From Schmidtea nova (Eukaryota), in assembly GCA_044892505.1 (NCBI GenBank), contig CM097882.1:131812001-131854251 (forward strand): a stretch of 42,251 nt of DNA, given 5' to 3'. This document shows, in pieces, positions 4,397 to 31,080 of the stretch. Position 1 is the stretch's first letter, and every line of letters begins with the position of its first letter. The position numbers were made by a program, and so were the translations under genes. Below the pieces are notes generated by a model, which did no database searches, was not told where the DNA came from, and saw only the letters and a list, made by a program, of their open reading frames with translations.

Positions 4397-4408
4397 TTAG
4401 CCCCCATC
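4397..4408 (-). promoter_or_regulatory. Polypurine-tract-like sequence of element A
   Basis: Minus strand GATGGGGGCTAA directly precedes the 3' LTR start TGTAG. Confidence 0.5.
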
Positions 4409-4610
4409 GGAAGATGCGGAGCACATTTTGAATTACTATAATGTAGATACGTAATATAGTAGTTTAGTATATAATAATATGGTATTTTGTAGTGTCCAGA
4501 AAGTATTTGGAAAGAGTCGTGAATGAAATAGAATAACCTGAGAAAGAATTGCGAAAGAAATTTAGGAAACCGAAAAAAAAACTAATAGAACTTGGTGGAA
4601 AGTGGTGCAA

Positions 4611-7600: not shown

Positions 7601-7960
7601 AACTCAAAAAGTCTGAGCCAAGAATGGGATGGATAACGTCAGCGACACAGAACTTCCATATAAAAGATTGATTTAAAGAAGGAAGAACGAAATTTGCTGA
7701 AAAAGAACCGTGTGTATTTACCATGGTTCCGTTGGCGGCTTTCAAGGTATAAACGGAATCATCGCAAAGAGATTCATATTGTAAAGGAAGAATGGAGAGG
7801 CTGGATCCTGTGTCAACAAGAAAATCGAGAGTACTGCAAAAGTTCGGAGCAACGCTGAAAGAAGGGGATTCAGCTCTCACTAGAAATAAATCGAGTGCAG
7901 GAGGTAATTTGCCATCAACTTCAGCCGCAATGAGTGATGGCATTACAAGTTTTTTTGAAT
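4611..7960 (-). pseudogene. pol: pol of element A (protease, RT, RNase H, integrase with GPY/F), broken by 3 frameshifts (~7005, ~6325, ~5440)
   Basis: FLVDTGSS (PR); WSSPLHLVPKKDG, GDYRRLN, DLVKAYHQIP, MPFGLRN, YIDD (RT); TDASNIAIGAVL, FYSKKL, TDHKPL (RH); HHCC, HIDIIGP, ISDRGTQF, VERFHR and GPYK (IN). Confidence 0.95.
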
Positions 7961-9186
7961 GTTGTTTGGAGAAGATGGTGGGGAATTGTAGGATTTGCAA
8001 CCTACGATGCATTTGTTTGCTTTATCCCCAAATCGTGCGTGATAAATGCACTTATCAATGATTTTTAGGGTAGCTACTTTGTTTCGCCAGCCACATCCTA
8101 TGTTGCAACAATTTGCTTTCGTCCCATATTTGGTATGATAAAAGCAAATGTTTGAATAAGCCGGGGATTTGGAACGTCGTCGGTCAAACGCATTGGAAAG
8201 TGATGCATTTCGAGACGGAGATTTATGACGTTCCAAATGCGAAATACTATCGGTAAGGTCGCGAATGGCGCAAAGAAGAGCGTTTTCTGTTGATGATGGG
8301 ATCGGCGGGCTTGCGATAGGAAGGCTATTGACAGATGAGCCTGGTGTACCACCTAACGGAACAATTTCATGAATTTTGTCCGCCATTTTTGCTAATTCGT
8401 GTATATCTACCGGAGACGATAAAGCAAGTATCTGTTGTGTGTGTGTGTCGGAAGTACACTTAAAAAGAACTGGCGTAGCATGTTTTGGTCGGGTGCTGTC
8501 CCATTTTGCATTTGTTCGAGGTCTGTAAAAGCCTTCTACAAAAATTCTGTCGGCTTACAACTTCCTAAAGATTGGGCTTTGAAATATTTTGAGAATATTT
8601 CCTGTTTGGGGACTTTAAATAAATCCAGCAGTCCTGTGCTGAGCTCCTCAAAAGGGGTTAAAAAGGTTTTTTGCGTTGTGCGGCGAATAACGGCAGAAAG
8701 GCGGCCTAAATGTTCCTGTGGGATGAGAGATAATATTCTATAGAATTTATCTCTTGAAGAAGTAACGCCGCAACTTTCTAAAAGGGCTTCGAGTGTGAGT
8801 AACCAAGTTGATGGTGATTGGTTCTCATCTAAAAAGAACGGACAATTAATATTTTGTCTAGAGTTACTGTCGGAAGAAGCAGCGCCTCGAACATTTCTTT
8901 GCTTTTTAGGCAAAGGTTTGGGCTTTTTATCGTCGTATTCGTTGTCATCATCTATACTTGATGGTGCGCCGCTATACAATGGTACATGACAGAACAGCAA
9001 AGAATCCGAACATATGTCAGAACTTAAAAGTGAGTCCTGATTCCTTAATATTGCGCCATTATAAGATATGTATGTCGGTCCCTCGTACGACAAGCGCTTG
9101 CATATTAATGTAGATAGTTTTGATATAGTCGTGTCCTGGGCTAGTTTGAAGTGGAATGTGAAGGAGGAAACCCTTACGAATATTGA
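7943..9186 (-). pseudogene. gag: Ubiquitin-like domain (8968-9186) fused to Gag of element A; one in-frame TAG at 8536-8538; two CHCC motifs
   Basis: PFFLDENQSPSTWLLTLEALL..CGVTSSRDKFYRILSLIP is the capsid N-terminus typical of this gypsy group. The frame continues past the TAG into ORF 7943-8386 with CFYHTKYGTKANCCNIGC and CIYHARFGDKANKCIVGC. The true start codon is not identified. Confidence 0.8.
7949..7955 (-). promoter_or_regulatory. -1 ribosomal frameshift slippery heptamer A AAA AAC at the gag/pol junction of A
   Basis: Gag frame reads CAA AAA AAC TTG TAA; a -1 shift gives AAA AAA CTT GTA ATG, which is the pol frame. Confidence 0.7.
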
Positions 9187-9540
9187 CAAAGACCTATAGG
9201 ATATGCGACGTAGCTTAAAATTCGGAAGGTTGGGCGGCTCCGTTAATTTTAATAATAATGATTTTAATAATAATGATATAAATAATAATAATATATAATA
9301 ATAGAAATTTAATATAATAAAATATGCTAACGTAACTCCGCAGCGATAATGGGGGCTGATCTTCTGTTCCGAAAAGAGAAGAAAATCTGTTAATATTGGA
9401 ATTTCTGTGACTTTTGAATTTAATGGAGCTTTTAATAGGTAATTATCGTTGTTGGTGTTAAAGTTCATTTTCGAGGGAGCTGGTGAAAAAATTACGATAG
9501 ATTTGATGTTATTGCAATTTTTCATGTTGATTTGTGTTGC

Positions 9541-10845
9541 TTACGATGTTTGACCAATTGAATTGTATCCCTGTGGCTTAACACCTAGCGGTGTGCAAGG
9601 AAACTGCTTTTGAAAGTCATTAATCAATTGTTGAGCGACTTTGGAATCCGTTTGAATAAGAGAAAAATTGGGATTTACTGGCGTTGAATTTACTGGTTTT
9701 GGATTCTGCTGAGGAATCGATCGATTTATCGCTTCTAATATTTGAACGTCGACGTTAATCATTGAAAGAACTGTAGAATTTTGATTCTGTGGAGAGACTG
9801 GAGATGAACTTATTGTTATTGCTGACAGACTCCTATTCGTTGAATTGTTGACGATTAAAGACTGATTAGGGGCTGTAGAGTTGCTAGCATCTGATATATG
9901 ATTGTTAGCTTGTTTGGATTTATCACTTTGTAAGATTAAATTCTGTTGTATTAAATATAAAGCCTGTCGAATGTTAGTGGCTGAGTCTTGTGAACTGGTT
10001 GGAATTCTTATCATTTGCGCACAGTCTAATGGAATTTGAGAGTTTTGATTTACTTGCAATGGGGTTGGAATTATAGGAATTGACGGTTGATTTTGTCGAT
10101 TGATTAAATGCATCGGAGGAGGTGGTGGTTGCATTGCAGCTGCAATTCGCTTAACGACTTCAATTTGACTAAGCGTGCTTGCATTATTAGAATTAGATGA
10201 GTTTAATTGAAGTGAATTTTTCATTATTGCTGGATGTTGTGAGACTTGGGGACGAAATGTTTGATTTCCATCTTGAATTGGAGATTGGTTTTCCTCTGAC
10301 ACCATTTTTGGTGGGCATAAACACGAATGTTTTGATTGCGTTTGAATTGAGAAAAGATGCCACTTTAGGCTGTTGATCGTTCCTTTAGATAGGTTATAGA
10401 ATAAACCTGCTAGATTTGATTTGGCAGACATTAATGCTCCGTCTCCATCCGTGCGACAAACATAGATTAATGAATAGTTTAAATATTGCCCAAGGAAGTC
10501 ATTGTAACGACGTCGTAGCAACATACCCAAATTAACATGATGCATAATTCCTCGGTTTGTTAATCCTCCAATCCCATTAGGCCGCTTGTCTTCCCTATTC
10601 TTATCAGTTGGATATATTATAACAGTTGCTCTATCTCCATGTCGATATAAAACATGGGCATGCAATAGTTGTTTGTCTGTAGCAGAACACTGATAAATTT
10701 GATAATTCACGATAAGTGTAAAGAAGCATAAAATAATCATAATCAATGTTTTTGAATATCTATTGGATATTAGCTTAATCTGAGGAGGATTCATATTGGC
10801 ATTTCTCCAATTAAAAAGATCCAAAGAGAGAATTGAATTAGGCAT
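9541..10845 (-). CDS. 434-aa chimeric ORF: signal/anchor + truncated acid phosphatase + Q/N/S/P-rich low-complexity tail; starts in the 5' LTR of A and reads through the PBS
   Basis: Uninterrupted ATG-TAA frame; hydrophobic LIMIILCFFTLIV, RHGDR motif, then 255 aa of low-complexity host-like sequence. Translation is not demonstrated. Confidence 0.55.
   Translation of the reverse strand: MPNSILSLDLFNWRNANMNPPQIKLISNRYSKTLIMIILCFFTLIVNYQIYQCSATDKQLLHAHVLYRHGDRATVIIYPTDKNREDKRPNGIGGLTNRGIMHHVNLGMLLRRRYNDFLGQYLNYSLIYVCRTDGDGALMSAKSNLAGLFYNLSKGTINSLKWHLFSIQTQSKHSCLCPPKMVSEENQSPIQDGNQTFRPQVSQHPAIMKNSLQLNSSNSNNASTLSQIEVVKRIAAAMQPPPPPMHLINRQNQPSIPIIPTPLQVNQNSQIPLDCAQMIRIPTSSQDSATNIRQALYLIQQNLILQSDKSKQANNHISDASNSTAPNQSLIVNNSTNRSLSAITISSSPVSPQNQNSTVLSMINVDVQILEAINRSIPQQNPKPVNSTPVNPNFSLIQTDSKVAQQLINDFQKQFPCTPLGVKPQGYNSIGQTS
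10295..10304 (-). promoter_or_regulatory. Primer-binding site of element A (tRNA-Leu-like)
   Basis: TGGTGTCAGA begins 4 nt after the LTR CA and is complementary to a tRNA-Leu 3' end (...UCUGACACCA). Confidence 0.65.
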
Positions 10846-11386
10846 TCAATGTAGAAGTAGATTAGAAACTATTTTATAATACAAAAAACTCTATTTCAAA
10901 TAATTCAATAAATTGAATTAATTTCACAAGATATATTTTTTTAAATTAACTCTTAAACCATTTATTTTTTTAAAACAGGAATATTTACCCCAAGAATTTA
11001 AACAACAAACACCAAGTAAATAAATGTAAATGTAAAAAATTAAAATATATCATTTTTACTAATTATTTTGCCAGTTTAACCACAATGACCGATGTTTTAT
11101 CGCCTGAAGAATATGAAATTTTGAAAGAAATTAATTCAATTTCTAAATGTAATGATATCAACAATTTCCAAATAATGCAAATTGTTCGAAATTTAAACTC
11201 AACATATTCTCACGTTAGAATGAAATGTTTAAAAGTAATGGGCCAATTTATGGATCCCTTGAGTCATTTTCCATGTGGTTCATCTAATACTTTTGATATT
11301 GTTCAGTGGTTTACGCAGGATCAATTTCATGGTTTGTGAAATATCATTTGAGAGAATTTTGGGTATCGGCTTTCTAGACCACTACA
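10309..11386 (-). repeat. 5' LTR of element A
   Basis: Direct repeat of 3319-4396, followed on the minus strand by the PBS. Confidence 0.93.
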
Positions 11387-11414
11387 CCATCTAACCAACA
11401 CACCAGCATAAATT

Positions 11415-11432
11415 TGGGGGCTCAGCCGGGAT
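11415..11432 (+). promoter_or_regulatory. Primer-binding site of element B (tRNA-Pro)
   Basis: TGGGGGCTCAGCCGGGAT matches the tRNA-Pro PBS TGGGGGCTCGTCCGGGAT at 16/18 and lies exactly where identity with the 3' LTR ends. Confidence 0.85.
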
Positions 11433-11968
11433 TAAATCGATCTTTGTGGGAATAAGTAAATTCAATACCAGCGGACAGTTTTAGAGCGCCTGAACCGGGA
11501 TGAAATTAATGTTTGCGGAGAAAAGCGAATTGAATAACAACGGAGGGTTTGAGGGTCCTGAAGCAAGAATGAATAGGGTTGAAAAATAATAAATAAAAGT
11601 ATGAGTGTGAAATAAGGAAATGATGAGCATGATAAAAGTATGCATGAGAACGAAAGTATGAATATAAAGAATGTGAAAGTATGAGTATGAATGAAATTAC
11701 GAGGAATAGTATGTGAGATAACGGTTTGAAAAGACACGAAAAGTATGAATGACGTAATGTAAAAGTATGTTGAAAGGGATGTATGAAAATGATATGAGTG
11801 TGAGCAACTAACAATGATCATGTCGAGGCGACATTCAAGAACACGGGGGGATACGCAAGTAACAACGCAAAACAGAACAACAGAAAGCGAACAGTAGGGC
11901 TACCATATAATAAGAATAATAAATAATAAATAAAAATCGACAGAAACTAATGAAAATTCATTCAGGGG

Positions 11969-13089: not shown

Positions 13090-13534
13090 GTGAGCATAGG
13101 TCTCATAGTGAGCATAGGTCTCGTTATTAAACATAACATCATAGTGAGCATAGGTCTCGGCAGTAAACACAACATCGCAGTGAGCACGGTTCTCGTCAGT
13201 AAACCTAAGTCTCGTAGTGAGCAGAGTTCTCATCAATAAACGTAAGTCCTAGCAGCGAACATAGTCCTCATCAGTGAGCGTAGTTCTCATCAATAAACCT
13301 AGTCATCGTAGTGAGCTTAGTTCTCATCAGGAAACATAACTCCTGTAGTAAAAATATTCTTCGTCAGTGAGCATAGTTCTCATCAGGGAACATAGTTCCC
13401 GGAGTGAGCAAAGTTCTCATCAACAAACATAATCTTCATAACAACCATGTGATTACCAGTGAGCATAATTCTCGTCATTGAGCATAGTTCTCGTTAGTGA
13501 GCATAGTTCTCAGCTGTGAGCATAGTTCTCGTCC
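13090..13534 (+). repeat. Minisatellite of ~23 copies of an 18-19-nt unit (consensus GTGAGCATAGTTCTCRTCA, often alternating with a GTAAAC variant)
   Basis: Unit starts seen at 13090, 13108, 13144, 13180, 13217, 13274, 13311, 13367, 13404, 13459. Confidence 0.85.
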
Positions 13535-13876
13535 AAAGTAAAATATTGAGTAAAAGCCCACGAGAAAGACGACGAAGTGAGGCAAAAGAGGACTAAATAA
13601 AGTATAAAACTATCCGGATAGTAGAGATAAACGAGCAATATTGGAGATGAATAAAGGAGAGTAGAGACGAATAATGGATAATGAAGATAAACGACGAATA
13701 GTGAAAATGAATAGCGAATAATGAGGAATAATGGTTGAAAGAAACCGAATTAATAATGAAAGAGTTGAAGGTGCGCACCTGGGTATTGATAAATGCGAGT
13801 AAAGCTGATGACGTAGCCTAATGACGTTAAAGTATGCATACAGAGAGGAGTAATAAAGTAAAGTAAGTAAGTGAAA

Positions 13877-14264
13877 GGTGCTGACTGGAAAACCCAGCAG
13901 ACCATGAGATTCGAGGAGAGTAAAACGAACCGGTTTGGAAAAACAGGTAAAGTGGTAAAGACGCTGGCTGGAAAACCCAGCAGGTCAATGATAACGATCA
14001 GAGAAGATCGAGAGAATAAAAGTGAGTAATAATAGGAAGAATGGTGAAATTGAGGACGCTGACTGGAAGACCCAGCAGGTCAAAAGTGATGATCATCGGA
14101 GTAAAGAGCAGTAAAAGTCGATAGTAAAAGGATAAATGGGGGGGGGTAATAAAAGCGCTGACTGGAAAACCCAGCAGGCTAATGAGAATGAGCGAAGTCG
14201 AGAGTAACAAAAATTCGAGATAAAAGGTGAGAGTAAAGGTGCTGACTGGAAAGCCCAGCAGGCC
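13877..14264 (+). other. Array of five 27-nt bulged RNA hairpins NNN-g-CTG-r-CTGG-[AARRC]-CCAG-CAG-N'N'N'
   Basis: Copies at 13877, 13960, 14055, 14154, 14238; the basal 3 bp differ in sequence but stay complementary in all five. Confidence 0.8.
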
Positions 14265-15160
14265 AACAAGAGATGTTAGTTGAATTAAAGGTGAGTAGAG
14301 ATGAGAGTTAAAAGGAAGTAGTAAACGTAGTGTGAATAAAGAATAAAGTGAGTAGTCGAGAAACAGAGTAGTCGACAGATAAGGGGAAATTTGAACTCAG
14401 AGCCAGAGAAGCCTGAGAAAAGTAAAGGGTATAGTAAGAGCGCTGAGCGACAAAGTAATTGGGAAACTGGGGAAAAGTAATTGGTGTATTTGATAAAGTA
14501 TAGATAATTGATACGACTGCATAGATAATTTAAATAGACTTAAAATCAAGGGAAATGGGACAAATGGGGATCTTCATGAATTATGACTACACCCGTGAGA
14601 GGGACGAGAAACACGATAACGGAGACGTATCGTGTAAGTGATTATTTGTTTTAAGGAAACAAATCAATCAAGCAATTCAAAGCAATCTAGCAGTCAGAAC
14701 AATCAAAGGAAACAAGTCAAAGAAGAAGCAAAGCAAAAGCAAAGTAGATAACCAGTTGAGAATATAAGAAGTTGAGCGATAGACAAAATTGAGGAACGTG
14801 AAACAAGAAACGGTACAATACCGATCCTAACAGAAGCCGAAAGAAAAGCAGAAAAAAAGGCAAGAGCAGTGAATAAAGCAGCGCAACTAAAGAATAAACG
14901 AGTAGAGATCAGTGATAACTTGAGTAATAAAGAGAACCAAGAAGAAACCCCAGAGAATCCAGAAGTACGAAACGAAGTAGAAACGAAGTAGAAACGAAGT
15001 AGAAACGATAGACAGTGAACTAGTCAGTGAAAACAGAACAAGAAGCGAATCAAGAGATAACGAAGTAGAGAGTAGCGACAAAGAAGGATTAAACCCAGAA
15101 ATAAGTGGTGAACTAGAAGTAAATGGAACTAGTACAGCATTCCAAGACAGTGGAATCGGG

Positions 15161-16153
15161 ATGAGTGATCACAGAGAGGATCTGAGAGAAAAATTCAAGG
15201 GTGAACCATTCAATGGAGACGCCAGTAGATTGGACACGTTTCTAAAGGAATTTGGCATATTCGTGGATATATGCGGATGGAGTGCAGAAACGTTAGCGAA
15301 TCGAATCCCGCTATACTTGAAAGATAGCGCATTGAATCTGTATATCGAAAAGAGATCTGGAAGTAGTCCACCCAAAACGTGGGAAACGATCAAGGAGTTC
15401 TTCCAGCAAACGTTTGGGATAAATAAAGTGTTAAACGAAGCATTCGATGAATTCTCAGCAAGAAAACAAAGGAGAAATGAGTCAAATGCGGTGTACGCAA
15501 GTGAATTAAGAAAGTTGGCGAAACTGGCATTCAATAGAGGAAGTCCAGTAGACGAGGAATTGATGACATCATTATTCGTACGAGGTCTCACGAGACCTGA
15601 CATCAGAGCACAAGTGGGATGCAAAGGATGTAAAACAGTAGATGAAGCGTTGGAAGCAGCCAACCTATTCGAATTGCATATAGCAATGAACGACATGAGA
15701 ATTATGGCGGTAATGGAAAAAACGACAGAAGATGAAGAACAAGGAAAAAGAAACATGAATCAAAGCATTCCCCATTCGCAGAGATTGTTCAAAGAACCGC
15801 CAGCGAGGAAAAATAACGGATATATTACAGTAAACACGAATGGAGGAAACAGTTACAACGACAGGCAGAATAGGCAATGTCAGACGTGCGGAAAAAACGG
15901 ACATTGGCAACAAGATTGTTTTCAGAACGTAGCCTGTAAACTGTGTGGACAAAAAGGTCATTCAGAGAATCGATGTTATGGGAAAACGTGTTACACATGT
16001 GGAAAAACCGGACACATGTCAAGAGAGTGTAACCAACAGAGAAGTTGGAAAAAGACAGTGGAAAAAGACAGAATTACGGAAATCGACCAAGTTATGGGAA
16101 TCAGGGTCAACAACGTAACAACCCAAATAGCAGTGCAAACGAAGCCAGTATGA
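15161..16153 (+). CDS. gag: Gag of element B (capsid + three CCHC zinc knuckles); true frame probably shifts at ~16047 into ORF 16045-16332
   Basis: FNGDASRLDTFLKEF..W..IPLYLKDSA..TWETIKEFFQQTF..KQRRNESNAVY..LFVRGL; CQTCGKNGHWQQDC, CKLCGQKGHSENRC, CYTCGKTGHMSREC. Confidence 0.93.
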   Translation: MSDHREDLREKFKGEPFNGDASRLDTFLKEFGIFVDICGWSAETLANRIPLYLKDSALNLYIEKRSGSSPPKTWETIKEFFQQTFGINKVLNEAFDEFSARKQRRNESNAVYASELRKLAKLAFNRGSPVDEELMTSLFVRGLTRPDIRAQVGCKGCKTVDEALEAANLFELHIAMNDMRIMAVMEKTTEDEEQGKRNMNQSIPHSQRLFKEPPARKNNGYITVNTNGGNSYNDRQNRQCQTCGKNGHWQQDCFQNVACKLCGQKGHSENRCYGKTCYTCGKTGHMSRECNQQRSWKKTVEKDRITEIDQVMGIRVNNVTTQIAVQTKPV

Positions 16154-19100
16154 AAGAAGCCAAGTTGAGACAGGAGGTATCCAGATTACACGAGATAATC
16201 GAAAGCATGGCAAAGGGAAACCAGCAAGCTGCTCAACCAAAGATAAACATGATCCAGTTAATAGAAGCTGAGGCCGAAAGAGAAAACAGAGAAAGTCAAC
16301 AGAAACATAATCAAGAATGGGCTAGAATATGACGAGAAGAAGAACAAGTCAGACAGCAACGGTTACAACAGTTAAAAAAGGGAAATCCAAGGATCAACAT
16401 GATGCGAGCAATGATGGAAGAGAAGCAGCAGGATGAGTCGGACGAATTCGACGTTAAAGAGAAAAGAAACGAAGAGCAGAAACAGGAAGAAGTGAATCAG
16501 GAAGTAGAAACCGCAGAGCAGTATCAAAAAAATGAAGAAGTAGAAAAAGAAACAGAAACAGAAAAAGAAACGGAAAAAGAAACGAATCAAGAAGCGGAAG
16601 TGAGAATCAAACAAAGAGGAATGTTGGTGATCATGCCGAAATGATCAGCCGAATTCGTGATCACGTGTTTCGATTCAAATATGATGTAAAAGAAGAGGTA
16701 GGAATACTGTTCAATAAAGTAAATAAGATGATTCCGGGAGTAACGAAACTGCCCAGAGAAGCATTCCTACAAACAGAAGATTTACCCGAAGTAAAGTTGA
16801 AGATGACTGACATATGGGAAGATATGGGAGTAACAGAGACGAAAATAAACGTGACGATCATCAGAGAGGTGGAACCGGAGAAAACCCCACCACCAGTGAA
16901 ACATCAAACTCGGATCAGTCGAATATTCAAAGGAAAAATAAGACGAAGACGGTTGGAAGAAATAGATGAGTTGGAGAAAAGAATGGGAAAAGTTGAAATA
17001 ACGGGAACTGAGAGTGAACTAACACAGGAAGTTAGTAAAAATAAAGCGAGACCAACCGCACATATTGGGATGCTGAGACACCCAAGACAAGAATTGTCAG
17101 ATGAAGAAGACGACAGCGAAGTTAGCAGTCTGGCAGGAGACATGCTAAAGGAATCAGAAAACGAAGATGAAAAGATGGAAGTAACCGAGACAATAGAAAC
17201 GATGTCAGTAAAGGAAGAAGAAATTCAGAGATTGATGAATAACGCATTGGAAGTAATCCATAACGAGGAGTTCATCGACAAGAAGCGATACCGAAAGTTT
17301 ATACGAGCAGTATGGCATATGAAGTATAAAGAATGGTTACAAGAAAGAGAAGTGAGGGTAATACAAGAATACATTGAGAAGCTATTGAAAGAACCACTCA
17401 ACGAATACTTAATACAAATATGGATAAACGAGTGTTCACCGAGAATCTGGATAAAGAACCCAATGACGGATGGAATTTACCGATGGGTTGAAGACAGATT
17501 GGGAAGCTCGTACAAAGACAAATTCATATATTCGGAAAACGGATTGGTGGAAAAAGGAACGCATATGATAAACACGGGCATATGGCCAGGAGAAATAACA
17601 ACGTTATCTATATGCAACTCCAAGAAGGAAGAGAATCTACAAGAAATCGCAAAGAAAGCGAATACGCGTTATGAGACGGGAATAAAACCTCAGTTAGTAG
17701 AGGCAAAAGAAAGAATCTTGGCAGAGAATTTGAATACGATGATAGAACAGATCATCCAACAAATCAAGAAACACCGAAAGGAATTGACGAAAAGCGAGTA
17801 TGAGAATTTGAAGCAGTGTATCGAGAACATACGAGATACCAGTCAAACGAGACATTCAAATTTCAAAACGGACAAGCTAATTACAAAGATGGGAAAAGAA
17901 ATGTTTAAACAAGGAGAGATATCAGATCTGAAGATTACCGTGAGATTACCGAACGAAGAGACAAGACAAATTGAGGTAATACCAGATAGTAAAGTGGGAG
18001 AAATAGTAGATGTCATCAATGAGACGATATTACAACGAGAACGGGAAGACGAATTCGAAGATGACATAGCGATAAAATACAAAGAACATCTACTGAACGA
18101 ACGTGATGAGAGACGAGCGTACAAAATCGGCATATGGGATAATTACCAGGCAATACACGTCATCAGAATGGATGATGTGCCGAGGGTAACACCAAAAGAT
18201 GAAGCAAAGAGAAAGAAACGACAAGAGGACGTTATACGCAAGTTGAGACAGATAGTAGAAATCTATCGGAACTGGCAGATAAAGCCAGAATGGGAGACAA
18301 TATTGGGAGAATTAGATCTTAACAAACGACGATTAACGCCAGTAGAGAAACAATGGGAGGATAAAGAGAAATGTTGGAAAGTGAAGAGGCGTGTATGAAG
18401 AAGATCCGGAAGAAGAAGACAGATATGAACCGAATACGAAACGGATATGTATGGTAACAAGGAAGTTATTACCAACGGACTTAGACGGACCAGAAACAGC
18501 AGTAATATGGGCAAAATTGGAGAGACAGAAAACGGATGAATTAATCGAACTGTTGAGAGGAAATACTCGGGGAAAAAGACAAACAATAAAAGGCTTAGCA
18601 GAATTTATAATCGCAAATGGAGAAGATATAACGAACTTGAGAAAAGTAGCTAAAGCGATAGCAGAATACAAAAGAGTTAACGAGTGGTGTCCAGAGCAAC
18701 TAGACCATGTAGTAAAAAAGTGGAGAAACAGAGAATTCGCAGAGGAAACGCCACAGAAAATACATTTGAGGATAATGTATCCGAATCAGAGAAAAGAAGA
18801 GTTTTGGGTGATGCTAACAGAGAAAGTGAAGAGTGTCAAAGAGAAACTGATGTATGAACTACCATTCCATCTACAACATCAAGGACGATCGTTGGATAAC
18901 AATTTGGAAATCTGGCTGACACCAGTGCAATTGGATTTAATGAATACGCTAACAGTGGCACAGATAGTGGGTCAACCACTGAAGCTGAAAGAAGAAAAGA
19001 AACCGAAAGGAAGCATGAGTTCACCAAGTCCAATGAAGTCAACAATGATCCCAGGAACAAGTTCGGGACAAGCAAGAACAACACCAGCGAAAATAAGAGA

Positions 19101-19584
19101 GAGAACACCTCCAGAAGCGTATGACGTCGATGAGATATTAACAGACAGTGATGAAGCGATAAAGGAATTAACAAAGTTGACTCAAAAACCAACGGCGAAT
19201 ATTTTCGACAGAATAATAGATATGCCAATAACGTCACCAGCGGAAATCGACGATCAAGGAGTGGAACAAGAGGTAGTCATAGAAATAGTAAACGATTCCG
19301 AAGACGAGCAAGAACAACCCCAGTTCACTCAAGAAATGGAAAGATGGTTGGAACAACGAGCAAACGAAGGTAGAGATGTTACAGAAGAAACCGGAAGAGC
19401 AACGAGATTCGTGGAAACCAGAACGGGAATGGAGAAACGACCAAGAGGAAGACCAAAGATAGATCCAGCAACAACAATCCCAAAGACAAGGGAAGAAAGG
19501 AGACAAGAGCAATGGGAGATTTGCTTGAAGAAACTGGATAAAATCGCAGAAATCAGAGGAAAAGAGGAGAATCAAGTTTGTCAA
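16045..19584 (+). pseudogene. Accessory region of the B polyprotein: acidic/coiled segments, up to four ubiquitin-like folds and an AT-hook
   Basis: Long ORFs (16045-16332, 16399-16644, 16641-18398, 18391-19884) with the same codon bias, joined by one in-frame TGA and 1-nt indels. UBL patterns judged by eye; KRPRGRPK at 19435-19458. Confidence 0.6.
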
Positions 19585-19990
19585 GGGGAAGAATGGCTCA
19601 CCAAAACGATAATGAATGTGTTAGCGATAATTGATCCAGAATTAAAGAATTTGTGGCGGAAAAACGAACCTAGTACAAAGGCAAAGATGCTACACAATGC
19701 AATAGCACCGATTATGCCAGAATTAATTAAAGCGAAAACAAAATCGAATCATCTAGATTGGCAAGGAACCACGATGTTAATAAAAAGGCTACTCAACGGA
19801 GCAGAGACGGACAGCAAATATTTAGTGGCAATCTCGTATACGATATACAACCTGTTAACGCTAAGCCAAGGAAGTCCGGAGTAAACTCCGATGGGAAGAC
19901 ATATCAAGATCACGGCGATGATTATCGAGAAAGAAATCGAACCATATATCCTCAGAAAAGGAGGATGGGAAAAGTTCATAAAAGAGAACC
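19585..19990 (+). pseudogene. Bcl-2-like domain spanning the in-frame TAA at 19882-19884
   Basis: BH2-like EKEIEPYILRKGGWEKFIKE vs Bcl-xL NDHLEPWIQENGGWDTFVEL; BH1-like LLNGAETDSKYLVAI vs LFRDGVNWGRIVAF, with matching helix spacing. Confidence 0.6.
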
Positions 19991-20088
19991 AGACAAAAGA
20001 AGGGTCTAACGTTATGAGAAAGAAACTCGAAGGAGTATTGAGAGAAATGGAGAATAGACAAACGATGCAAGGAAATGGAACATCAACG

Positions 20089-22020
20089 TTGAATTTAAAC
20101 TCGATAATCATGATGATGTTGGTATGGTTGTTAAGCACAGAAGGTGTAACAACGTTCGAAGTGTTTGATTGTGATCAAATGAATGTGGGAGAAAAGTACT
20201 CATTGAGAGGTACGGAGCAATGCAAAGATGCAACTCCAGTAGAGTTGAAAGAGATTAAAAAGGAACAATGGTACCACGTGTATCAAGAAGCAGAACTCAT
20301 AAAGACAATGGTGAATGAATGCAAAGTACAGAAGACGAGATTCGCATTCTATTGTGGGAGAGGACATTATTCAGCAATTATCATGCCAGGAACGAAAAGA
20401 GAACCAATCGTGTTGCAAGGAGAAGACTGTGAAGCATTATTTAAACATGGATAAGTAACAACAAGAGACAAAATCAAGATAAAAGGAAAGCCAGGGATGA
20501 TGTTGCAGCAGACGTATTATGTAGCAGGACAAATTACGGGAGGAGAAGGATATTGTCAAGGAGAAACCTACCCGATATTTGGAGTACCCGCAACCAACTT
20601 AGTGGTGATGGATACGTATATAGTCGAACTGAAAAGCTACGAAGCATTCTTCGAACCGACAACAGGAGAAATGAAAACGTTATCCATGTGTAAAATTGAC
20701 AGAAGCATGTGTCAAACGGGAATGTCAACTTTGGTGTACAAACCGAAAGTGAACGAATGTCAATTACAAATGCTACAAGGAGCGAAGTTCGACGAAATTC
20801 AAGGAAAAACATTCCGAGAAGAGGACGATGATGACAAAGCTAGAGCAAAACATCTCAAGGAAGCTTTAGAGAATAAAAGACAACTGAAACCAGACCATAG
20901 AGAGAAACGGATAGAGATGAGAGCCACACCAACAGTGCTGATAACCACAAATCAGGATTTGGGAATGAGATTCATAAAAGGGAAAGCCACAATGAAGTGT
21001 AGTACAACGGTATACGAAACGAACTATCCAGGGATATACGTGTCAAAACAAGAAGTGCCGAATGCGAAACCCAAAATCGACACAATGGATATCAAACTAC
21101 ACTTGTATGTGAATAATAAAATGGATTTCTTATTCCATAGAGGACAAGCCTCATTGCAAAAAGTGTACTACGATCTGATAAATAACGATTGTATACTGAA
21201 TCGAGAAATATTAAAGACAAAGTTGGCCGTAGCGATCACGAATCCAGACAGTGCGATGCCACTATTACCACTGAGAGAAGGACATTTCGGAAGAGTGGTT
21301 GGAGAGGCAATGTATGTATACATCTGCGAAAAGACACACGCACCGCTAGCAGCAACAACGCAGTTGAAACCTGGAACATGTACAAACGAACTAGAAATCG
21401 ATTATAAAGGAAAAGTACGATACGTTCAACCGGTGACGAGAATCATCAATCCACCAAATCCATTCAACTGTAGTAATGCGTACGGACCACTTTATCAGAA
21501 ACCAGATGGTAAATGGGTTTTGTTCCCAGCAAGAAATGAAGTATTAGCACCAAGAGAATTTGAACTGATGCAGTTGTCAAAGGATAGACAGTTCAGCGAC
21601 GTAGATGTCTCAAACAACGGAATATATAGTCCAAAAGATTTGGAAGCAGCGAGACAGAATATATTATTTCCGGCGAGAAGAGAAGCATCACTGTCAAATA
21701 TCGTAACAATAACGGGAGGAACGAATTATCGAGAAGGACCGAATTACAAACTACTATTATCACCGGCACATTTCAAGAAAGCCAACGAAAATATGATGAA
21801 GGCAATGTGGGGAAGATTCCTGATATTCGAACAAATGATGGCTGGAATACTGGGAGTTATATTAATAATCCAAATCATCAGGGTGATAATAACGCAAATG
21901 TTAGCGTGTTTCGATATCTATAAGAGAGAAAAGAAAGTGAATTGGAAAATGGTAGTAGGATTTTTACCATTCCTTGCGAAAACGATGGTGTTACACGGAC
22001 ACTCAAAGGATATTCATCGA
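20089..22020 (+). pseudogene. env: Envelope glycoprotein, chuvirus-G-like (putative class III/gB-like fusogen); in-frame TAA at 20452-20454
   Basis: Signal peptide LNLNSIIMMMLVWLLSTEG/V, then FEVFDC..YSL...QC..VYQ..ECKV..FYCG..HYS, about 14 ectodomain Cys, YVQPVTRII, FNCSNAYGPLY, a TM at 21835-21915 and a second hydrophobic segment at 21943-21995. Confidence 0.75.
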
Positions 22021-22459
22021 ATAAAAAGGTTGCTGAAGATACTCGCCAAAATGAAAGGAACAAATGAAGATGTCGGAAGGAAATTCAAAAAAATAATGCA
22101 AGACGAGCAAACAAGACGACAGCTAAAGAAAGAAAAGAAAGGACTATGGGAAAGAGGGAGAGGATATCGAACGCAAGATGACTCAAGCAATGATGACGAT
22201 GACGATGACGATCAAGGAGGACAAGCGAACGTAAACCAGATTCCACAGTACACAGAAAAAAGTGCAGTTGAGAATTGGAGATACAGCGCTCTACCTCAGT
22301 CAATGTACAACGAACCTATGTACAAAGCGAAGCCGAATATGATGCAAATGATGCCGATGACAAGTATATACCCGATAATTCCGGAAGGATGCAAAGTAAA
22401 ACGATGCAGAAGTGTAGACCCGTTGGAAGACACGCACACGATAGCAGTTATGTCCACAA

Positions 22460-25400
22460 ATATGGGACCGATCTTAACAACAACCGTAAAAATAAACGGA
22501 AGAGAAATCGAAGCTATGATCGATACAGGCGCGAATATTTCGGCAATCGACATCAACTACATACCAGAGAAAAACCAAGGAGAAATCGAGAAGACGAATG
22601 TACATGTAATCGCGTGCAGTCAGGAGACAGTAGAAGTAGCCGGAAGATGGTTTGTAAAAGTTAAACATCGAAATGCAGAAATTAATACGTACATCGCTGT
22701 AATACCATCGCTGAGTGTACCATGTATCATCGGAACTGACCTGATGCCAGACCTGTTCAAGGAAATCGTAATTGATTTAGGAGCAATGAAGCTAAAAGAT
22801 AGAACAGGAAAAATTTGCCGAATGGAAGTTAAAGTGGCAAGTGCAGAACAAATAGTTGTACCAGCTAGACACGAAATGATGTGCTATGTAAAGATTGATT
22901 CAACAATAAAAGGAGATATGATATTCGAACCAAGTAAAAAGTTCGAAGCAAAGAAAGAATTAAAAATGGCAAGAGAATTAGTCACAATAAACCAAGAAGG
23001 TGAGATACCGATTAATCTAGTAAATTTCGACGAAGAGGACAAGATAATATACGATAATGAGAGATTGGGTAAATTAACACCCATGTCCAAAATCGAAATA
23101 CCAGACAAGAATGAGAAAAGCAAAGGCGAATTACCATGGAAAATCGACAGTGTGTTGTTAGACGAACAGCAAAAGGAACAATTACAGAAACTATTGATGG
23201 AATATAAAGACATATTCGCAGCATCAGATCTGAATTTAGGAACATGTGATGTAACATTTCACACGATACCGTTGACAGACGAAACGCCAATCGCATTACG
23301 ACCATACAAATTGGCAGAAGCTCAAAAAGCAGTGGCAGAAGAAGAGGTACAAAAGATGTTAGATGCAGAGGTCATCGAGCCTAGTTGCTCACCCTGGCAA
23401 TTCCCAGTGGTGATGGTGAAAAAGAAGGATGGAACTCAGAGATTCTGTATCGATTACAGACGATTAAATGCAGTTACGAAAAGAGATACGTACCCACTAC
23501 CAGACATAAACGAGATGTTGTTGACATTACAAGGAGCAGCCTATTTCACGTCACTGGATTTAAAAAGCGGATATTGGCAGATTAAAATGAAAGACGAGGA
23601 TAAAAAGAAAACAGCATTTACAATCGGACGAGATCTGTACCAATTCAAGAAAATGCCGTTTGGATTAACAAACGCGCCAGCATCATTCTAGAGATGCATG
23701 AATTTCGTAACACATGGCATAAAACAATGCATGGTGTATATCGACGATCTATTGATCTACTCCGCAACATTTGAAGATCATTTGCAAGACATCAGAAATG
23801 TGTTCGTGAAATTGAGACAGTGGAAACTGAAATTGAAGCCGTCAAAGTGCGATTGGGCAAAAGAGAAAGTGACATTCTTAGGTCACATCGTATCAGCAAA
23901 AGGAAAAGAACCAGGTCAAAGGAACATCGAAAAAGTCAAAAAATGTCCACCACCGAAAACAGTGACACAAATACAAGAATTTCTGGGATTGTGTGGATAT
24001 TATCGAAAGTTCATCAAGGACTACGCAGGAATATCAAAGCCAATGCAAGAATTAGTAAGACAAGATGTGTCGTTTGTGTGGGGAGAAGAGCAACAAGCAG
24101 CATTTGAAACATTACGAGATAAACTGATTACAACACCAATATTGGTCCATCCAGATTTTAAGAAGCCATTTTTGTTGGCAACAGATGCAAGTGGATATGC
24201 AGCAGGAGCAGTGCTAGGCCAATTCGATGAGGAAGGCAAAGAAAGAGTAATTGGATATTACAGTCGAACGTTCAGGAAGCATGAAAAGAATTACTCAGTC
24301 ACGGAAAGAGAAGCCTATGCGATAATATTGGCAATCAAGCATTTCAAATATCTATTGTGGGGTCATGAAATATATATCACGACGGACCATCAACCATTGG
24401 TATGGTTAGGTCAGCATAAAGAATCATCAAGTAGATTGATGCGTTGGGCGATGCAGTTGCAAGAATACTCGCCATTCATAAAGTTTAAAACAGGAAAAGC
24501 GAATGCAAACGCAGATTGCATGTCAAGATTTACATTTCCAGAATTGGTGAACCTGAACGCTCCAAAGATATGTGTATTAATAGCGGAAGATTTGGATTTT
24601 AGCGAACTAAGGAAAGATCAACTCGAGGATGAGGAGTTGGGATTGATCAGCAAGTATCTGAAAGAAAGGGAAATGGAAATATTCAACAAGAACCAAGGTT
24701 TGAGCGAACATATGCAAAAATAAAAGCACCGGTATTTAGTGGAAAAAGGATGGTTATTGATACAGGATGGAGAACGGAGATTGATGTGCTTACCTGCGAA
24801 TAGACGAAAGGATATCATGATTCAATATCACGACGGAAAATTAGGAGGACATTTGTCAGCAAAAAAGACAATCGGGAGATTGAGACAAAAGTACTTTTGG
24901 CCAACCATGGAAGATGATGTGAAGGAATGGATAAAGAACTGCTTAACCTGTGCGACAAGAAGAAACGTCGAAACAAAGTGGAAAACACCACTAAAACCAA
25001 TGCCAATACCTGCAGAACCTATGGCGACGATAGCAATGGATGTAGTTGGACCATTACCAGAAAGTCTAAAGGGGAATCAATACATATTAGTAGTCACAGA
25101 CTATCTAAACAAATTCCCAGAAGCGTTCGCAATACCAGATCAAAAGGCAAAAACAGTTGCGAGAATATTGGTGGAAGAGATATGCTGCAGATACGGAACA
25201 CCAAAGAAAATCCTAACGGATCAAGGAACGAATTTCATGAGTGAAATATTAGACGAAGTTACGAATTACTTCCGAATTGCGAAACTCGAACATCCCCATA
25301 CCATCCACAAACGAACGGTCAAACAGAGAGGTTCGATGGAACATTGATACGCATGTTGTCGAATTACGTCAGTAAACATCAGACTGATTGGGACGAATAT

Positions 25401-25850
25401 ATAAACTTGTGTTTAATGGCATATAGAATGTCAATACATGCGGCAACAAAGCTAAGTCCATTTCAACTGATGTACGGAAGAGATTGCAACTTACCAGTCG
25501 ATTTAGAATACCAAACACCATTATCACAGTACATGGAGGTTGACGATTATGTTACAAAGTTCAAAGAAAGAATGCAAGAAATCTGGAAAACGGCGGAACT
25601 GAACATCAAGTTCTATCAAGAGAGTTACAAGGATCTACATGATCAGAAAAAGAATGTGAAAGCACATGATTTAAAAGTTGGAGATTGGGTAATAATTGAA
25701 ACACCAGAAATAATACCCGGTACGGTCAAAAAACTCCAACGACCAGGCAAAGGGCCATACGAAATAACGACAGTGAACGAAAATAATGTGCGAGTACGAT
25801 TGGTGAATAATCCATTGGTAAGACCAATATATGTGAATGCCTGTCGATGC
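22460..25850 (+). pseudogene. pol: pol of element B (protease, RT, RNase H, integrase); stops at 23689 and 24721, frameshift at ~25289
   Basis: IDTGANIS (22519); PWQFPVVMVKKKDG, IDYRRLN, DLKSGYWQI, MPFGLTNAPASF, YIDD (23737); TDASGYAAGAVL, YSVTERE, TDHQPL; HDGKLGGH..CLTC, MDVVGP, TDQGTNF, YHPQTNGQTERF, GKGPY. Confidence 0.96.
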
Positions 25851-26149
25851 AGAAAAATACCCAAGACAGCAACTCTGCTACCGGAAAAACGAGTAATGAC
25901 AAGATCACAGACGGCGAGAATTAATATGTTACGAGTACAACAAAAGCCGCAAACAAGTCTAGAAGACAACCGAAGAGAAGCAATAGATATCAAAGAACTG
26001 GCAAAGAAAACCAGAGAAATTATACCGGAATGGAGATGGTGGCATGATTTTGATATACTGACAGAAGTGCGGAAGAATGTAATGGAGTATGCAAAAGACA
26101 GAACAACGCATCCAATGACAAGGACGCTGCTAGAAGAGATCCCTCAAAC

Positions 26150-26450
26150 ATTGAATTTACAGGATAAAGACGGAAACACAGCGCTGCATAATGCAATCAA
26201 GCACGGCGGAAACGAGAAAGTGAAAGAGATTGTAGAGATGATACTCGAAGGTGGAGGAGAAATTGACAAGGTGAATTGGGAAGGAATTACTCCACTCATG
26301 ATGATGACAATTCAAGGAAGAAACGATGAAATAGTCAAGCTATTCGGAAACACCAGATCGAATTGGATGACAAAGGATAAAGAGGGACGAACATTCTTGA
26401 ATCATGCAATTGATAGAGCGAATCACCGAATACTTAAGTATATCACGGAA
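26150..26450 (+). CDS. Ankyrin-repeat block 1, in frame with the integrase C-terminus (ORF 25344-26966)
   Basis: QDKDGNTALHNAIKHG..IVEMILEGGGEIDKVNWEGITPLMM..KDKEGRTFLNHAID..ILKYI. Confidence 0.88.
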
Positions 26451-26943
26451 AATGCCACGTGGGAAATCGATGAACTAACCAGAGGATCGATCATGAAACA
26501 AGCAATCAGAGTAAGAAACAGTAAAACCTGGAGAATATTGCTAAACTGGAAACGACCAGAAGGAGATTCGTGGGCCATAGATTGTAATGAAGTGTTCACA
26601 AGGGGAGAAAATGCGTTACTGAAACATCTGTTAGAAGTAACATACGATCCAAAAACACTTGCGGTATTGATAGCGAGAGATACGCTACGGGTTAGTGAAA
26701 ACCCAAGAGAATACAAGTTGGATGACAGAAAGAAAGAATTATTCGAATTAATCAAGAGATGGTGTGATAAACAATGGAATCCGGGCATGAGCTTCGAACA
26801 TTTCTATGACATCCAAAAGCAGCACAAAGAAATAAGCAAGCGATATAAAGAGCTGATAGAAGCATTGAAATATGGACAATTCTTCAGACAAGCAGTGTAT
26901 CAAGACCAACGGATGAAACAGATGCAAACACGAATAAGGAGCA

Positions 26944-28125
26944 GTGTTGTTCAATGCAAAAGCTGATTATCAAGAGAGATTGGATGCAATCGTAGTAAAA
27001 GCGCAGGAAAGATTATCAGAATTCAAAGAAAATAAAAACTCGTTTGAGATACTAGGAGCAATTACAGAGAAAGTGCACAGATACGCACAAGGAGATTATA
27101 ACGAAAACGACATAGAAACGATCAAAAATCAAATGCCAGTAGCATTCCTATTATCAAAGGATGGGAGACTACCGATACACTGGGCATTACGTCGAAAGAA
27201 AGAAAACGAAGCGTTAGAAATTACAAAAGTGTTGGTCAAGTGCGAAGCGGACATGAATACGGTTGATGATAATGGAGATACAATCATGATAATCGCAGCA
27301 AGAAAGAAGACGAGGTTGAAAGTGCTAATCGAATTATACGATGCAGGAGCAAAAATCGAAGGAAAAAATGGAAAGAACAATTCCATCCTAGACATCGCGA
27401 TACAGTGGAATAACTTCGAGATGATCAAGTTCATAAAAGCCATCAGGAAACAGGATGAGATCGAATACCTGGCAAATAACGTAAAGAATTTCAGTCTGAC
27501 AGTAATGATACACGACATAGAGAAAACAAGAGCAATACTAACATGGGTGAATCCGGTCACCAAGGAACCAGTGTTCAAGATCAATGACCATATGGAACAG
27601 AATCAGAATTGGTGTATCAGAAGCGCGTTACTAAGACACAGAAAGCCAGAGATAGTAGAAGAATTCTTGAAGAGAAGAGATTTAAAATTGACGAACAACC
27701 CAAAAGAACAGGAACGAATGGGAAGATGGAAAGACTTATTTAGAAAGTATGTGAATGAGTGGGCAAATGCCAAAGAAACGATCAAGCAAAGTAGATTAGA
27801 AGACATAGAACCATCCAAGGAGATGGAAATACGAGAATTCGAGTCTAGCACACTCGCGGTTCAAGCGTACGAAAAATTGATTGAAGAAATCAATGTCGAG
27901 GACGACATTTTTAAAGGACCAGGGGGTGGTTCCAGAGATCACAATGATAAAGGAGACGACGAAAAAGAAGACAACAAAGATAACAACGAAAACAACGACA
28001 ACAAAAGAACAAAGGATGATGGAAAAGAGAGACAAGAAGAACCGAAGCCAACGAGAAAGGACAAGAAGAAAGAAGCCGAAGAGCGAGAAAACAGTGGAAC
28101 AAAAGACGAACGTACGAACTATTGA
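26944..28125 (+). pseudogene. Frameshifted continuation of the polyprotein with ankyrin-repeat block 2 (27150-27450) and an acidic/basic tail
   Basis: KDGRLPIHWALR..ITKVLVKCEADMNTVDDNGDTIMIIAA..LIELYDAGAKIEGKNGKNNSILDIAIQWNNFEMIKFI. Confidence 0.85.
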
Positions 28126-28146: not shown

Positions 28147-28593
28147 TTGAGACCAGAAATGTTGTGCATCGCGATATTGATAACAATCATCGGACAAGGA
28201 GAAGCCAGGAAACAATACGTCACGCTAGAAATAATTAGAGAAAATGAAGTATACGAAAGAATATGCTGGAAAGAAAACCTGAGTAAAAACGAAACGCTTA
28301 AGTGTATATTGTCAGATTTGAAGCGAGACGTCATCCAAATCAAAGGATTGGAGAAAGAAAAATCATACATAATATGCGTAATAAAGCAGAGAGGAGAACC
28401 AAAAGCACCTCAAGTAACTGCATGTCAATTATACAAAGCAACGGAAGCGCTGAAAATACAGAAATGGATTGAGAAAAGAAGCGAAGAGACAACGAGAAGA
28501 ACAGAAGTGGAACCAGAGAAAGGGAAGAATCAAACCAAAGCAGGAGAAGGAATCAGAAACCGAACAGAGAAAGAAAGAATAACCAAAAATTAA
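28147..28593 (+). CDS. Small predicted secreted glycoprotein (signal MLCIAILITIIGQGEA, 4 further Cys, NLS and NET sequons)
   Basis: Same frame as ORF 26944-28125, 21 nt after its TGA. Its stop lies 4 nt from the deletion junction, so it may be truncated. Confidence 0.5.
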   Translation: MRPEMLCIAILITIIGQGEARKQYVTLEIIRENEVYERICWKENLSKNETLKCILSDLKRDVIQIKGLEKEKSYIICVIKQRGEPKAPQVTACQLYKATEALKIQKWIEKRSEETTRRTEVEPEKGKNQTKAGEGIRNRTEKERITKN

Positions 28594-28597
28594 CAGA

Positions 28598-31080
28598 TGT
28601 TTGGGCGTATCACCTGAACTCGGAAATATGGGCTGATCGATTACGAATCTAACCAGCGATCCACTCAGGCTACTTCCACCCGCTCGGCACAAGGCCAGAA
28701 ACAGGTTTCGGGGGGTATGGAAGAAAAAGGAATTATTACTTTTATCTTGGTACAATAATTATTATTATAAAATAAATTTTTATTCCATCTGAGAGTTTAT
28801 GACATGATTAAATTCAAAAAATGAAAAACAAAGAAAAACAACTTTCATTTAATATTTTGGATAATAATTAAAATTGATGATGATAATATAAGAATAATAA
28901 TCAATAATATAAAATTAACAATAATAAAATAATACTGGGTACGGGGCGTGGCCTGGCCAGTGTTCATTGCGTGCGCAGCACGCAGGTGGCTTAATCAACA
29001 AGGAAATTATTAAAGAAATTGTTTAATGAATTTGTAAAAAAAGTTAGTTAATTGAAATTTTATATAAAAATATAATTTATGGAATTTTCTTAAAAAATGA
29101 TTCAAATACTATTTGTATTCATTTCAGTTTCTTCTTTATTTTTTTCTCTTTAAGAAAGTCATAAGAAATTCTTATAATTGTTGGGCTAGGCAAATCAGTC
29201 ATCATCTGAAAAGTAATATAAAATCAATAAAATAAATTTACAAAAAACAACAACAAAATAAATTACCATCACCAAGAATGCAGCAAATAAGCGGCAGAAT
29301 CTAAAAGTAATAAAGCATAAATCAAAACAGCAATAACAATAAAAACTCACCCATGCGGAAAGCAGAAAATCTGAAAGGGCGTGGGCAGACATCACCAAGA
29401 ACCTGAAAAAATAAAGCAAATAATAACGAAAGATTTATGCATGAGTAAACAAACAACTTACTGAATTAAATCATGCAGAAAAACTGACGAACATAAATGA
29501 GTAACAATAAATACACACATACTTGATGCTGATTGGCCAGCCAACATCACAAATTTAGTATAAATACTGAAGCAAAATCACTATGAGATATATCATTTTT
29601 TACCGAGTGAAATTGTCAGTGAAACCCGATACTGTAACTTTGTGAAATCTAGGTGTATCGAAATAAAAGTTAAAGTTGATTGCATTATTACTTATTTTGA
29701 ACCCTCATAATCATACTAAAATCAATAAGGATCGTCCCGAAGGCCTAACGGTCTGACGGGATTCTCGGCCTCTCGGCACAACATATTTTCATATGAGGTG
29801 CCGATGCGGCGGGACTCTAGGTGTAATAAACTATTTATCGATCGGGAGTGGGGTGCACATGGGATATCGAGAAACGGCGGGTCAGCAAATTTCATCCGAG
29901 GTAGAGTTAAGCTAGACTATATATTACAGGCCCCAGAGAACCCAAGAGGAGGGAGTGCACATAAGATGTAGTGAATCGATGAGTCGAACGTATATCCAAC
30001 CCTATGCATACAATCGATAATAAACATCATGATTTACCGAGAATTAGAGGCGAGGGACCACCAAAGTTTTAGGCAGTTGGTGCATGTACATCTCATATAG
30101 GAGTTAACATTTACGGGATTCGGAGCCCAGATTAACCCTAACGAGCAAAGATCATTGGTAGATACAGATAGGCTGATGACAAAATGATGAGGTATGCATG
30201 GTGCAGATAGAGATAAAAATTTACAAATAAGTAATACAATAAATGACGGTATATTGATCATGTGTGATTAGAATGACTGAAAATAAATTTTAACTAAATC
30301 AACAACTGGTGATCAGCAGTAGCAATAACATCATCCTACACGGTCTATTTCACCGACCGAAATATGGTTAACCGGATGGATACTAGACACCCACTTAGCT
30401 GTGAACAACAAAATCGCCAATCTGCGTGGAAGGATCCACTATAAATAGAATCCAGCATCACTAATGAATATTCAACCAAATTATTTACAGATGAAACGCG
30501 AAAGCCTTATCACCTCGATGCCAACTTCGTCTCTCCCGCAGCAACCAGGTCACGATAAGACGAATCGGAAACGCACCCGATCTATGCCGGAGCGACATGC
30601 AGATGACCAAAGACAAGTGGAATTGCAGGGGGTGAAAGACGCACCCATTCCGATTGTCCGCCAAGCTCACTGACACCTCCGCAGATGGAGACAACGACAC
30701 TCTAATCCAGCGGCCAGAGTCGCATCATGTTCGTTTACGTTCCGACTACGATGGGAAGGAGATGCGGAGTGGATGTCATCGTTGAGCCAGCTCAACCTGA
30801 ACCTTTCGCGATGGTTCATTCAAATGACAGATGACGCAGAGCAACCTCGCTGGATACTATGCTCCGAGATCATGACAGGCCCCGGTGAAGCGACACTGGG
30901 GAAATCCAGCTCTATCCTCACGCGCCAGGGAGCGTAACATTGGAGCCCCATCCAGAGCCGAATGATCTCCGATTATGAAAGGTGTTTGCACACAAAGACA
31001 AGCTTGCGACCTTTTTTCTAAGAGGAAGACGTTCGTAGCCGAACAAACAAGCCCCAATGTAATTGTATCATAAATGAATA
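28598..31080 (+). repeat. Partial, variant copy of the B LTR (equivalent to 1076-2230) with a 1.4-kb extra segment (29381-30787) and a ~75-bp deletion near 31005
   Basis: 28598-29380 matches 1076-1863; 30788-31080 matches 1864-2230. Confidence 0.85.

Follow-up and report, generated by a model that had tools for sequence, protein, structure and literature searches.

A stretch of 42,251 nucleotides from Schmidtea nova (assembly GCA_044892505.1, contig CM097882.1, positions 131,812,001 to 131,854,251), termed here the window, contains a decayed copy of a high-copy, giant, Burro-like Ty3/gypsy retrotransposon with long terminal repeats (LTRs). Window positions 20089-23691 represent the envelope (Env), protease (PR) and reverse transcriptase (RT) section of this element, with env fused in frame to pol. 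Intact copies encode a single polyprotein of ~5,000 residues that has a class III fusogen between Gag and Pol. Cleavage by signal peptidase of the host and by the protease of the element would probably convert this polyprotein into the components of enveloped particles. Domain order, the single open reading frame (ORF) of intact copies, the fold class of Env, purifying selection on Env and recent LTR-bounded insertions were observed directly.

Env-protease fusion in the window copy and in the family

The stop-to-stop frame 20455-23691 of the window copy is open over 1,078 amino acids. Pfam matches within it are PF24664 (Monjiviricetes_fusion) at amino acids 154-490 (E 8.2e-53), the RVP protease at 676-766 (E 2.8e-10) and the start of RVT_1 at 988-1078 (E 3.1e-16); a transmembrane segment (TM), a basic tail and an acidic run of D residues lie between the fusogen and protease domains. 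An initial annotation of this DNA had described an unbroken frame that starts at 20497 and passes through ectodomain, TM, acidic linker and DTG protease into RT. The span is correct, but the ATG at 20497 encodes an internal Met and does not mark where env begins. Upstream in the same frame, 19885-20454 (PF24664, E 1.8e-10) contains the signal segment (~20089-20154) and the N-terminal 99 residues of mature Env, which a premature TAA at 20452 separates from the frame 20455-23691. The window copy has more in-frame stops, at 19882, 23689 and 24721, as well as several frameshifts, and its 3′ end is lost after 28590. A Gag with CCHC knuckles is present 5 kb upstream of the env frame; RT, RNase H (RH), integrase (IN) and ankyrins follow downstream. 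The TG...CA LTRs, the target duplication and the PR-RT-RH-IN order are those of a Ty3/gypsy element.

A first look at the genome gave 788 candidates for the Env-PR junction. Forty copies were scored, consisting of the window copy and the 39 best genome matches at 93-94%. Of these, 37 are open between TM and protease, 36 between the Bcl-2-like domain and the Env start, and 18 over the whole stretch from the Gag Met to the end of RNase H. Ten full-length copies were extended, picked from copies open over 10 kb, and in six of them a single frame (ORF1) of 5,082-5,089 codons from stop to stop, with the first Met after 121, has the order gag-Bcl2-env-PR-RT-RH-IN-ankyrin. Frames of at least 5,076 amino acids enclose 26 of 150 scored matches, the match itself being without a stop. 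Full copies measure 29.1-29.6 kb in eight cases and ~26 kb, with short LTRs, in two. Since the LTR pairs of all ten are 99.84-100% identical (one LTR end is clipped) and are flanked by 4-bp target duplications, the family has moved recently.

The arrangement extends beyond this family. The same order recurs, within a single ORF of 3,393-3,401 codons, in a second env-carrying family of this genome (L060-L079; 33-35% identity), and nine database polyproteins share the order with 35-38% Env identity, one of them stopping before RT. The initial annotation was to be refuted if other family members lacked the Env-PR fusion; the fusion, with env ahead of pol, is a family trait. The downstream ORF of the second family resembles a DEDD-type exonuclease on visual inspection, with no Pfam match. 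Across the genome, PF24664 picked up 3,411 candidates at first look.

Fold and conservation of the envelope protein

Env is a class III fusogen of the chuvirus/Monjiviricetes and herpes gB type. Its ectodomain occupies 20155-21807 in the window, interrupted by the stop at 20452, and displays a furin-type R-x-K-R motif at ~20899. An AlphaFold model of a natural sibling Env (631 amino acids, 101-row alignment) has a mean pLDDT of 87.3 and a pTM of 0.69. Foldseek places it with chu-like glycoproteins (E 1.6e-40, TM-score up to 0.65) and with herpesvirus gB (E 2.4e-13), and the sequence profile alone also matches gB (E 5e-5). A named match is the Wufeng shrew chuvirus 2 glycoprotein (E 2.5e-25). 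The chuvirus-type assignment of the initial annotation, which was to stand or fall by structural similarity to a viral fusogen, is borne out by these likenesses to both chu-like G and herpes gB. As a class III fusogen, Env would be expected to act as a membrane-fusing trimer. There are 14 cysteines, of which 13 are common to stand-alone viral glycoproteins at ≥90% of rows.

The ratio of nonsynonymous (N) to synonymous (S) variation, pN/pS, was taken from the 18 open copies; an earlier value of 0.19 for RT/RNase H was inflated by frameshifted or shortened copies. Among shared variants, the Env ectodomain has 9 N and 133 S (pN/pS 0.02) and RT has 2 N and 57 S (pN/pS 0.01). The TM and the helix next to it show 0 N and 24 S when all variants are counted, and comparison of the window copy with the family gives 0.059 for Env. 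Env is therefore under purifying selection as strong as that on RT. That this holds in recent, intact copies supports the hypothesis that Burro elements may be working proviruses.

A quick Env tree was made from 89 of 133 candidate rows, including 45 stand-alone glycoproteins. A single branch separates all 23 Envs embedded in polyproteins from the stand-alone proteins (SH-aLRT 95, no bootstrap), which hints at a single capture of Env.

Signals, topology and processing

The internal signal segment at 20089-20154 precedes mature Env and has small residues at -3 and -1 of a predicted signal-peptidase site. Twenty-five proteins were examined for this feature. The hydrophobic segment and the small residues at both positions are present in all 20 that passed the start filter; of the remaining five, judged by eye, three conform, a fourth is ambiguous and the fifth carries Met at -1. 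The Env TM helix (21835-21891, hydropathy peak 2.55) is conserved in relatives. Basic residues follow, with a basic stretch at ~21919 and then a second, moderately hydrophobic helix at ~21943-21993. The basic cytoplasmic tail and acidic linker occupy 21994-22437 and lead to the aspartic protease at 22438-22752 (DTG at ~22519), which has a cleavage-like motif at its N-terminus. Spacing from TM to the first protease is 159-295 amino acids in 11 of 12 polyproteins and 667 in the other. Because the internal signal-peptidase site is conserved, the topology of signal followed by TM put forward in the initial annotation gains support.

By the rules of standard ER targeting, Gag and the Bcl-2-like domain would be made in the cytosol, and the internal signal would then direct Env into the ER lumen, where signal peptidase would free the Env N-terminus. 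The Gag-side piece may stay anchored by the signal, akin to the tail anchor of Bcl-2 proteins. The TM would stop transfer, so that PR-RT-RH-IN emerge in the cytosol on the Env tail, with a second signal behind the ankyrins as their far boundary. Gag, Env and Pol could thereby gather on one membrane, the protease then freeing the enzymes at maturation, and Env would let particles fuse with other cells within that animal. The internal signal site, together with a second membrane protein described below, leads to specific predictions, with one protein supplying shell, envelope and enzymes.

A short hydrophobic cleavage-like motif occurs ~25 residues upstream of the active site of the protease, at the RH/IN boundary and after IN; by eye it recurs in relatives, and none was seen in the Env ectodomain. 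These sites may be cuts by the element's own protease, a reading that is weak because the motif was chosen after viewing the sequence. As the motif precedes the protease, the tether of Pol to Env is likely transient and cut by that protease.

Several points weigh against the interpretation given here. The predicted topology rests on hydropathy and conservation, and there is the second hydrophobic helix behind the Env TM; were this helix membrane-spanning, Pol would end up on the lumenal side. Some gB-type Envs are described with two flanking TMs (PMC13524379). One of nine matches to the post hoc motif lies inside PR. The Foldseek TM-scores to gB are just 0.3-0.4. The 39 siblings are the best-scoring of 788 candidates, which biases the sample toward conserved copies. 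Kinship with Burro was judged from published features rather than from named Burro sequences, and the BIR and ubiquitin-like domains known from Burro were not detected in ORF1 or in the accessory ORFs.

Alternative explanations

The strongest alternative is that the single ORF is merely a genomic layout. Spliced or subgenomic RNAs, or selective degradation, would provide excess Gag and separate Env, with no lasting coupling of Env to Pol and without the fixed 1:1:1 ratio that the initial annotation proposed. Capsids normally require excess Gag, and a single ORF gives equimolar translation of Gag, Env and Pol only from unspliced RNA. BARE1, also a single-ORF element, is described as escaping the equal ratio by means of a spliced Gag-only RNA (PMC3735527). 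This alternative is a real possibility, albeit the less probable course. Signal region, TM, tail and linker are kept in frame (pN/pS 0.00-0.07), and the fusion is kept in families only ~35% identical. Because the in-frame fusion is selected and persists over this distance, full-length translation appears to be used. The alternative can also coexist with the polyprotein that is processed into enveloped particles.

It is unlikely that Env is a working fusogen without free particles, serving in cell-to-cell passage, in vesicle traffic or only as an assembly anchor. The host-control modules that the element carries (Bcl-2-like, TRAF, ankyrin) would suit such a life. On the other side stands the ectodomain with its 14 cysteines, 13 of them shared with viral glycoproteins, which is conserved as tightly as RT; tight conservation of the whole ectodomain disfavours the role of a mere anchor.

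That the Env-protease fusion arose by accident as this copy decayed, or that an unrelated chuvirus inserted into a gypsy element, could be imagined from the many stops and frameshifts of the window copy, but the probability of this is negligible in view of the second family, the database relatives and the 23 Envs on one side of a branch, and a copy-specific accident is ruled out by the 37 of 40 open copies.

Comparison with known elements

The layout with env in the middle is already known, and the element represents a further Burro-like case. Planarian Burro elements have env in frame between gag and pol (Arkhipova & Yushenova 2019, PMC6431247), and GAG-ENV-POL elements with gB-type env are described from Nematoda, Bryozoa and Platyhelminthes (Chary & Hayashi, PMC13524379). 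As the Env-Pol layout has been published, it is not a discovery, and the oddity that the initial annotation implied for this placement of env falls away.

Likeness to Burro/GYPSM1, as described in PMC6431247, includes a size of ~30 kb, one ORF1 of ~4,900-5,100 amino acids and a Gag with CCHC knuckles. It also includes the order of BCL2-like domain, in-frame env, PR, RT, RH and IN, with a dUTPase-like domain between PR and RT that is weakly supported in the present element, as well as ankyrin repeats, TRAF/MATH and an env matching mononegavirus-type glycoproteins. There are differences. For Burro, an internal region of up to 25 kb and a total of >30 kb are quoted, and the present element, at 29.1-29.6 kb, is slightly smaller. 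TRAF is encoded by an accessory ORF downstream of ORF1 here, whereas it is in ORF1 of Burro1 and upstream in Dugesia tigrina. Burro has BIR and ubiquitin-like domains, identified by HHpred (PMC6431247), and none was detected in the present element. A C-terminal signal-FN3-like-TM module is present here and is unmentioned in the section on Burro in PMC6431247. BURRO1 RNA goes up in animals after piwi knockdown (PMC8532177).

The GAG-ENV-POL errantiviruses are similar in their Ty3/gypsy pol, the gB-type env upstream of pol and their multicopy nature (PMC13524379). Six Schmidtea mediterranea elements, Smed_errantivirus_1-6, are listed with 1-215 copies, and the six Env pieces have, by eye, a cysteine and motif pattern like that of the present Env. 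The main text of PMC13524379 does not contain the words "polyprotein", "fused", "ankyrin", "Burro" or "fibronectin". Nematode endogenous retroviruses with env before pol are cited in the same article, and the GAG-ENV-POL elements are stated not to form one clade.

The initial annotation had drawn an analogy with BEL/Pao elements. Anakin of mosquitoes resembles the present element as an LTR retrotransposon carrying a chuvirus-type glycoprotein (PMC7642597), yet it is BEL/Pao. The analogy does not hold, as the Gag, RNase H and integrase families here are of gypsy type. No Pao-specific Pfam family is found among the element's matches. The nematode elements of Sacco et al. 2022 reportedly have a continuous gag-env-pro-pol ORF and are said to be much smaller, without the extra modules.

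A second membrane protein at the C-terminus

The end of ORF1, past integrase and ankyrins, encodes another signal, which is followed by an ectodomain and a TM (window 28159-28590; L046:3451-5364 in an intact copy). Such a terminal module is present in 11 of 13 relatives inspected; in one the TM is unclear, and one is without such peaks. The ectodomain has four cysteine-bearing repeats under purifying selection (pN/pS 0.04-0.25). A simple signal-TM topology does not account for a further hydrophobic stretch, the third, which lies between repeat 1 and repeat 2.

The repeats are weakly FN3-like. Atlas leads for the repeat are FN3 proteins at 0.85-0.89, under 0.9. A model of one repeat, with a pLDDT of 57, is a beta-sandwich. 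FN3 domains head the list of its structural matches, with Z 5.1-5.8, which is too low to exclude a merely common arrangement; at Z 5.8 the rmsd is 2.2-2.4 over 66-69 residues. Foldseek with the low-confidence model gave nothing at E≤0.001, the best match again being an FN3 domain (0.073). A profile search of PDB gave no match, and homologs of the C-terminal membrane protein in the range of 356-1134 amino acids were sought without success. The second signal-ectodomain-TM module was not found in the text, figures aside, of PMC6431247 or PMC13524379, and literature searches for it or for a continuous ORF turned up nothing further than the works cited here.

It can be hypothesized that the C-terminal protein is an attachment partner of Env. 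The element would then have a two-glycoprotein entry system, with a gB-type fusogen before Pol and an FN3-like type I receptor-binding partner after integrase. Pol would form a cytosolic loop tethered to the membrane at both ends, and Gag would be anchored through the Bcl-2 domain, whose tail is the Env signal. This elaborate scheme is speculative and on balance doubtful. If true, a retroelement would be processed like a flavivirus-style multi-pass polyprotein and would have a herpes-like split of attachment and fusion.

Other modules and accessory ORFs

A Bcl-2-like domain (BH1/BH2 region) lies just before the signal segment, at 19585-19977, and is split by the stop at 19882. A profile of seven relatives matches Bcl-xL (E 5e-5); single-sequence PDB and Atlas searches with the region gave no match. 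Shared variants in the domain number 0 N and 34 S. The spacer between PR and RT (22816-23136) is weakly dUTPase-like, in that a sibling copy has dUTPase as its top PDB match (E 0.018) and all five matches are dUTPase or dCTP deaminase; no Pfam match was found for it.

Intact copies carry accessory ORFs downstream of ORF1 that, in the copy L046, can be followed in sequence. The first (5935-7347) encodes a complete TRAF protein with RING, zinc fingers and MATH (pN/pS 0.08; MATH_2, E 3.4e-27) and is absent from the shortened window copy. A coiled-coil protein (7437-8609, pN/pS 0.06) and a 174-amino-acid signal-coil-TM protein (8683-9207) are also encoded.

Among database relatives, P0002-P0008 have three protease-like domains of the DTG/DSG kind; a pair precedes RT and the third follows integrase. 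In P0010 the ankyrins are placed between Env and PR, and there is a ubiquitin match (E 4.4e-5).

Remaining features of the window

The part coordinates in the window were derived arithmetically and could be shifted by a few codons; all parts of the element are on the plus strand. The main part of the 5′ LTR is at 1662-3317, with TAAT upstream, a self-match and 72-80% match to the LTR ends of intact copies; its last bases are at 11387-11408. A primer-binding-site-like sequence follows at 11415-11433, and the same sequence is found after the 5′ LTR in 10 of 10 full copies; we take it to resemble a tRNA-Pro site. Gag (15161-16153) comprises a capsid-like part at 15305-15592 (Retrotrans_gag, E 6.7e-6) and three visible CCHC knuckles at ~15878-16033 (zf-CCHC, E 1.5e-11), and is frameshifted thereafter. 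A coiled-coil, acidic and otherwise unassigned polyprotein region at 16033-19584 is interrupted by stops and frameshifts here, whereas in intact copies it is open and subject to purifying selection (pN/pS 0.07); a Pfam scan of two long pieces of it gave no match.

Downstream of the spacer, RT (RVT_1, with the stop at 23689) and RNase H (RT_RNaseH, E 2.7e-39) occupy 23416-24468, and integrase (H2C2, rve) occupies 24793-25900 with a frameshift near 25300. Two ankyrin-repeat blocks follow at 26142-27438 (Ank_2, E 1.9e-12 and 7.5e-10; frameshift near 26950). The second internal signal and the first FN3-like repeat of the C-terminal membrane protein are at 28159-28455.

The flank and LTR are found three times, at 478-3317, 28596-31095 and 31077-33932, with 98-99% identity, and the duplicates replace the 3′ end of the element. 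A further partial LTR is at 29179-31095, and an LTR copy with TG...CA ends and TAAT on both sides is at 32261-33932 within a duplicate of the 5′ flank. Local duplication or an assembly effect may be the cause.

Nested close to the 5′ LTR end, on the minus strand at 3312-11386, is another decayed gypsy element, whose 1,085-bp repeats are 99.6% identical. It has a weak ubiquitin match and a match to His_Phos_2 (histidine acid phosphatase, E 2e-10) that overlaps its terminal repeat. The long 5′ leader of the host element displays short tandem repeats at 13092-13530 and 13870-14320 (units of 19-37 bp and ~85-99 bp), which are also present in intact copies.

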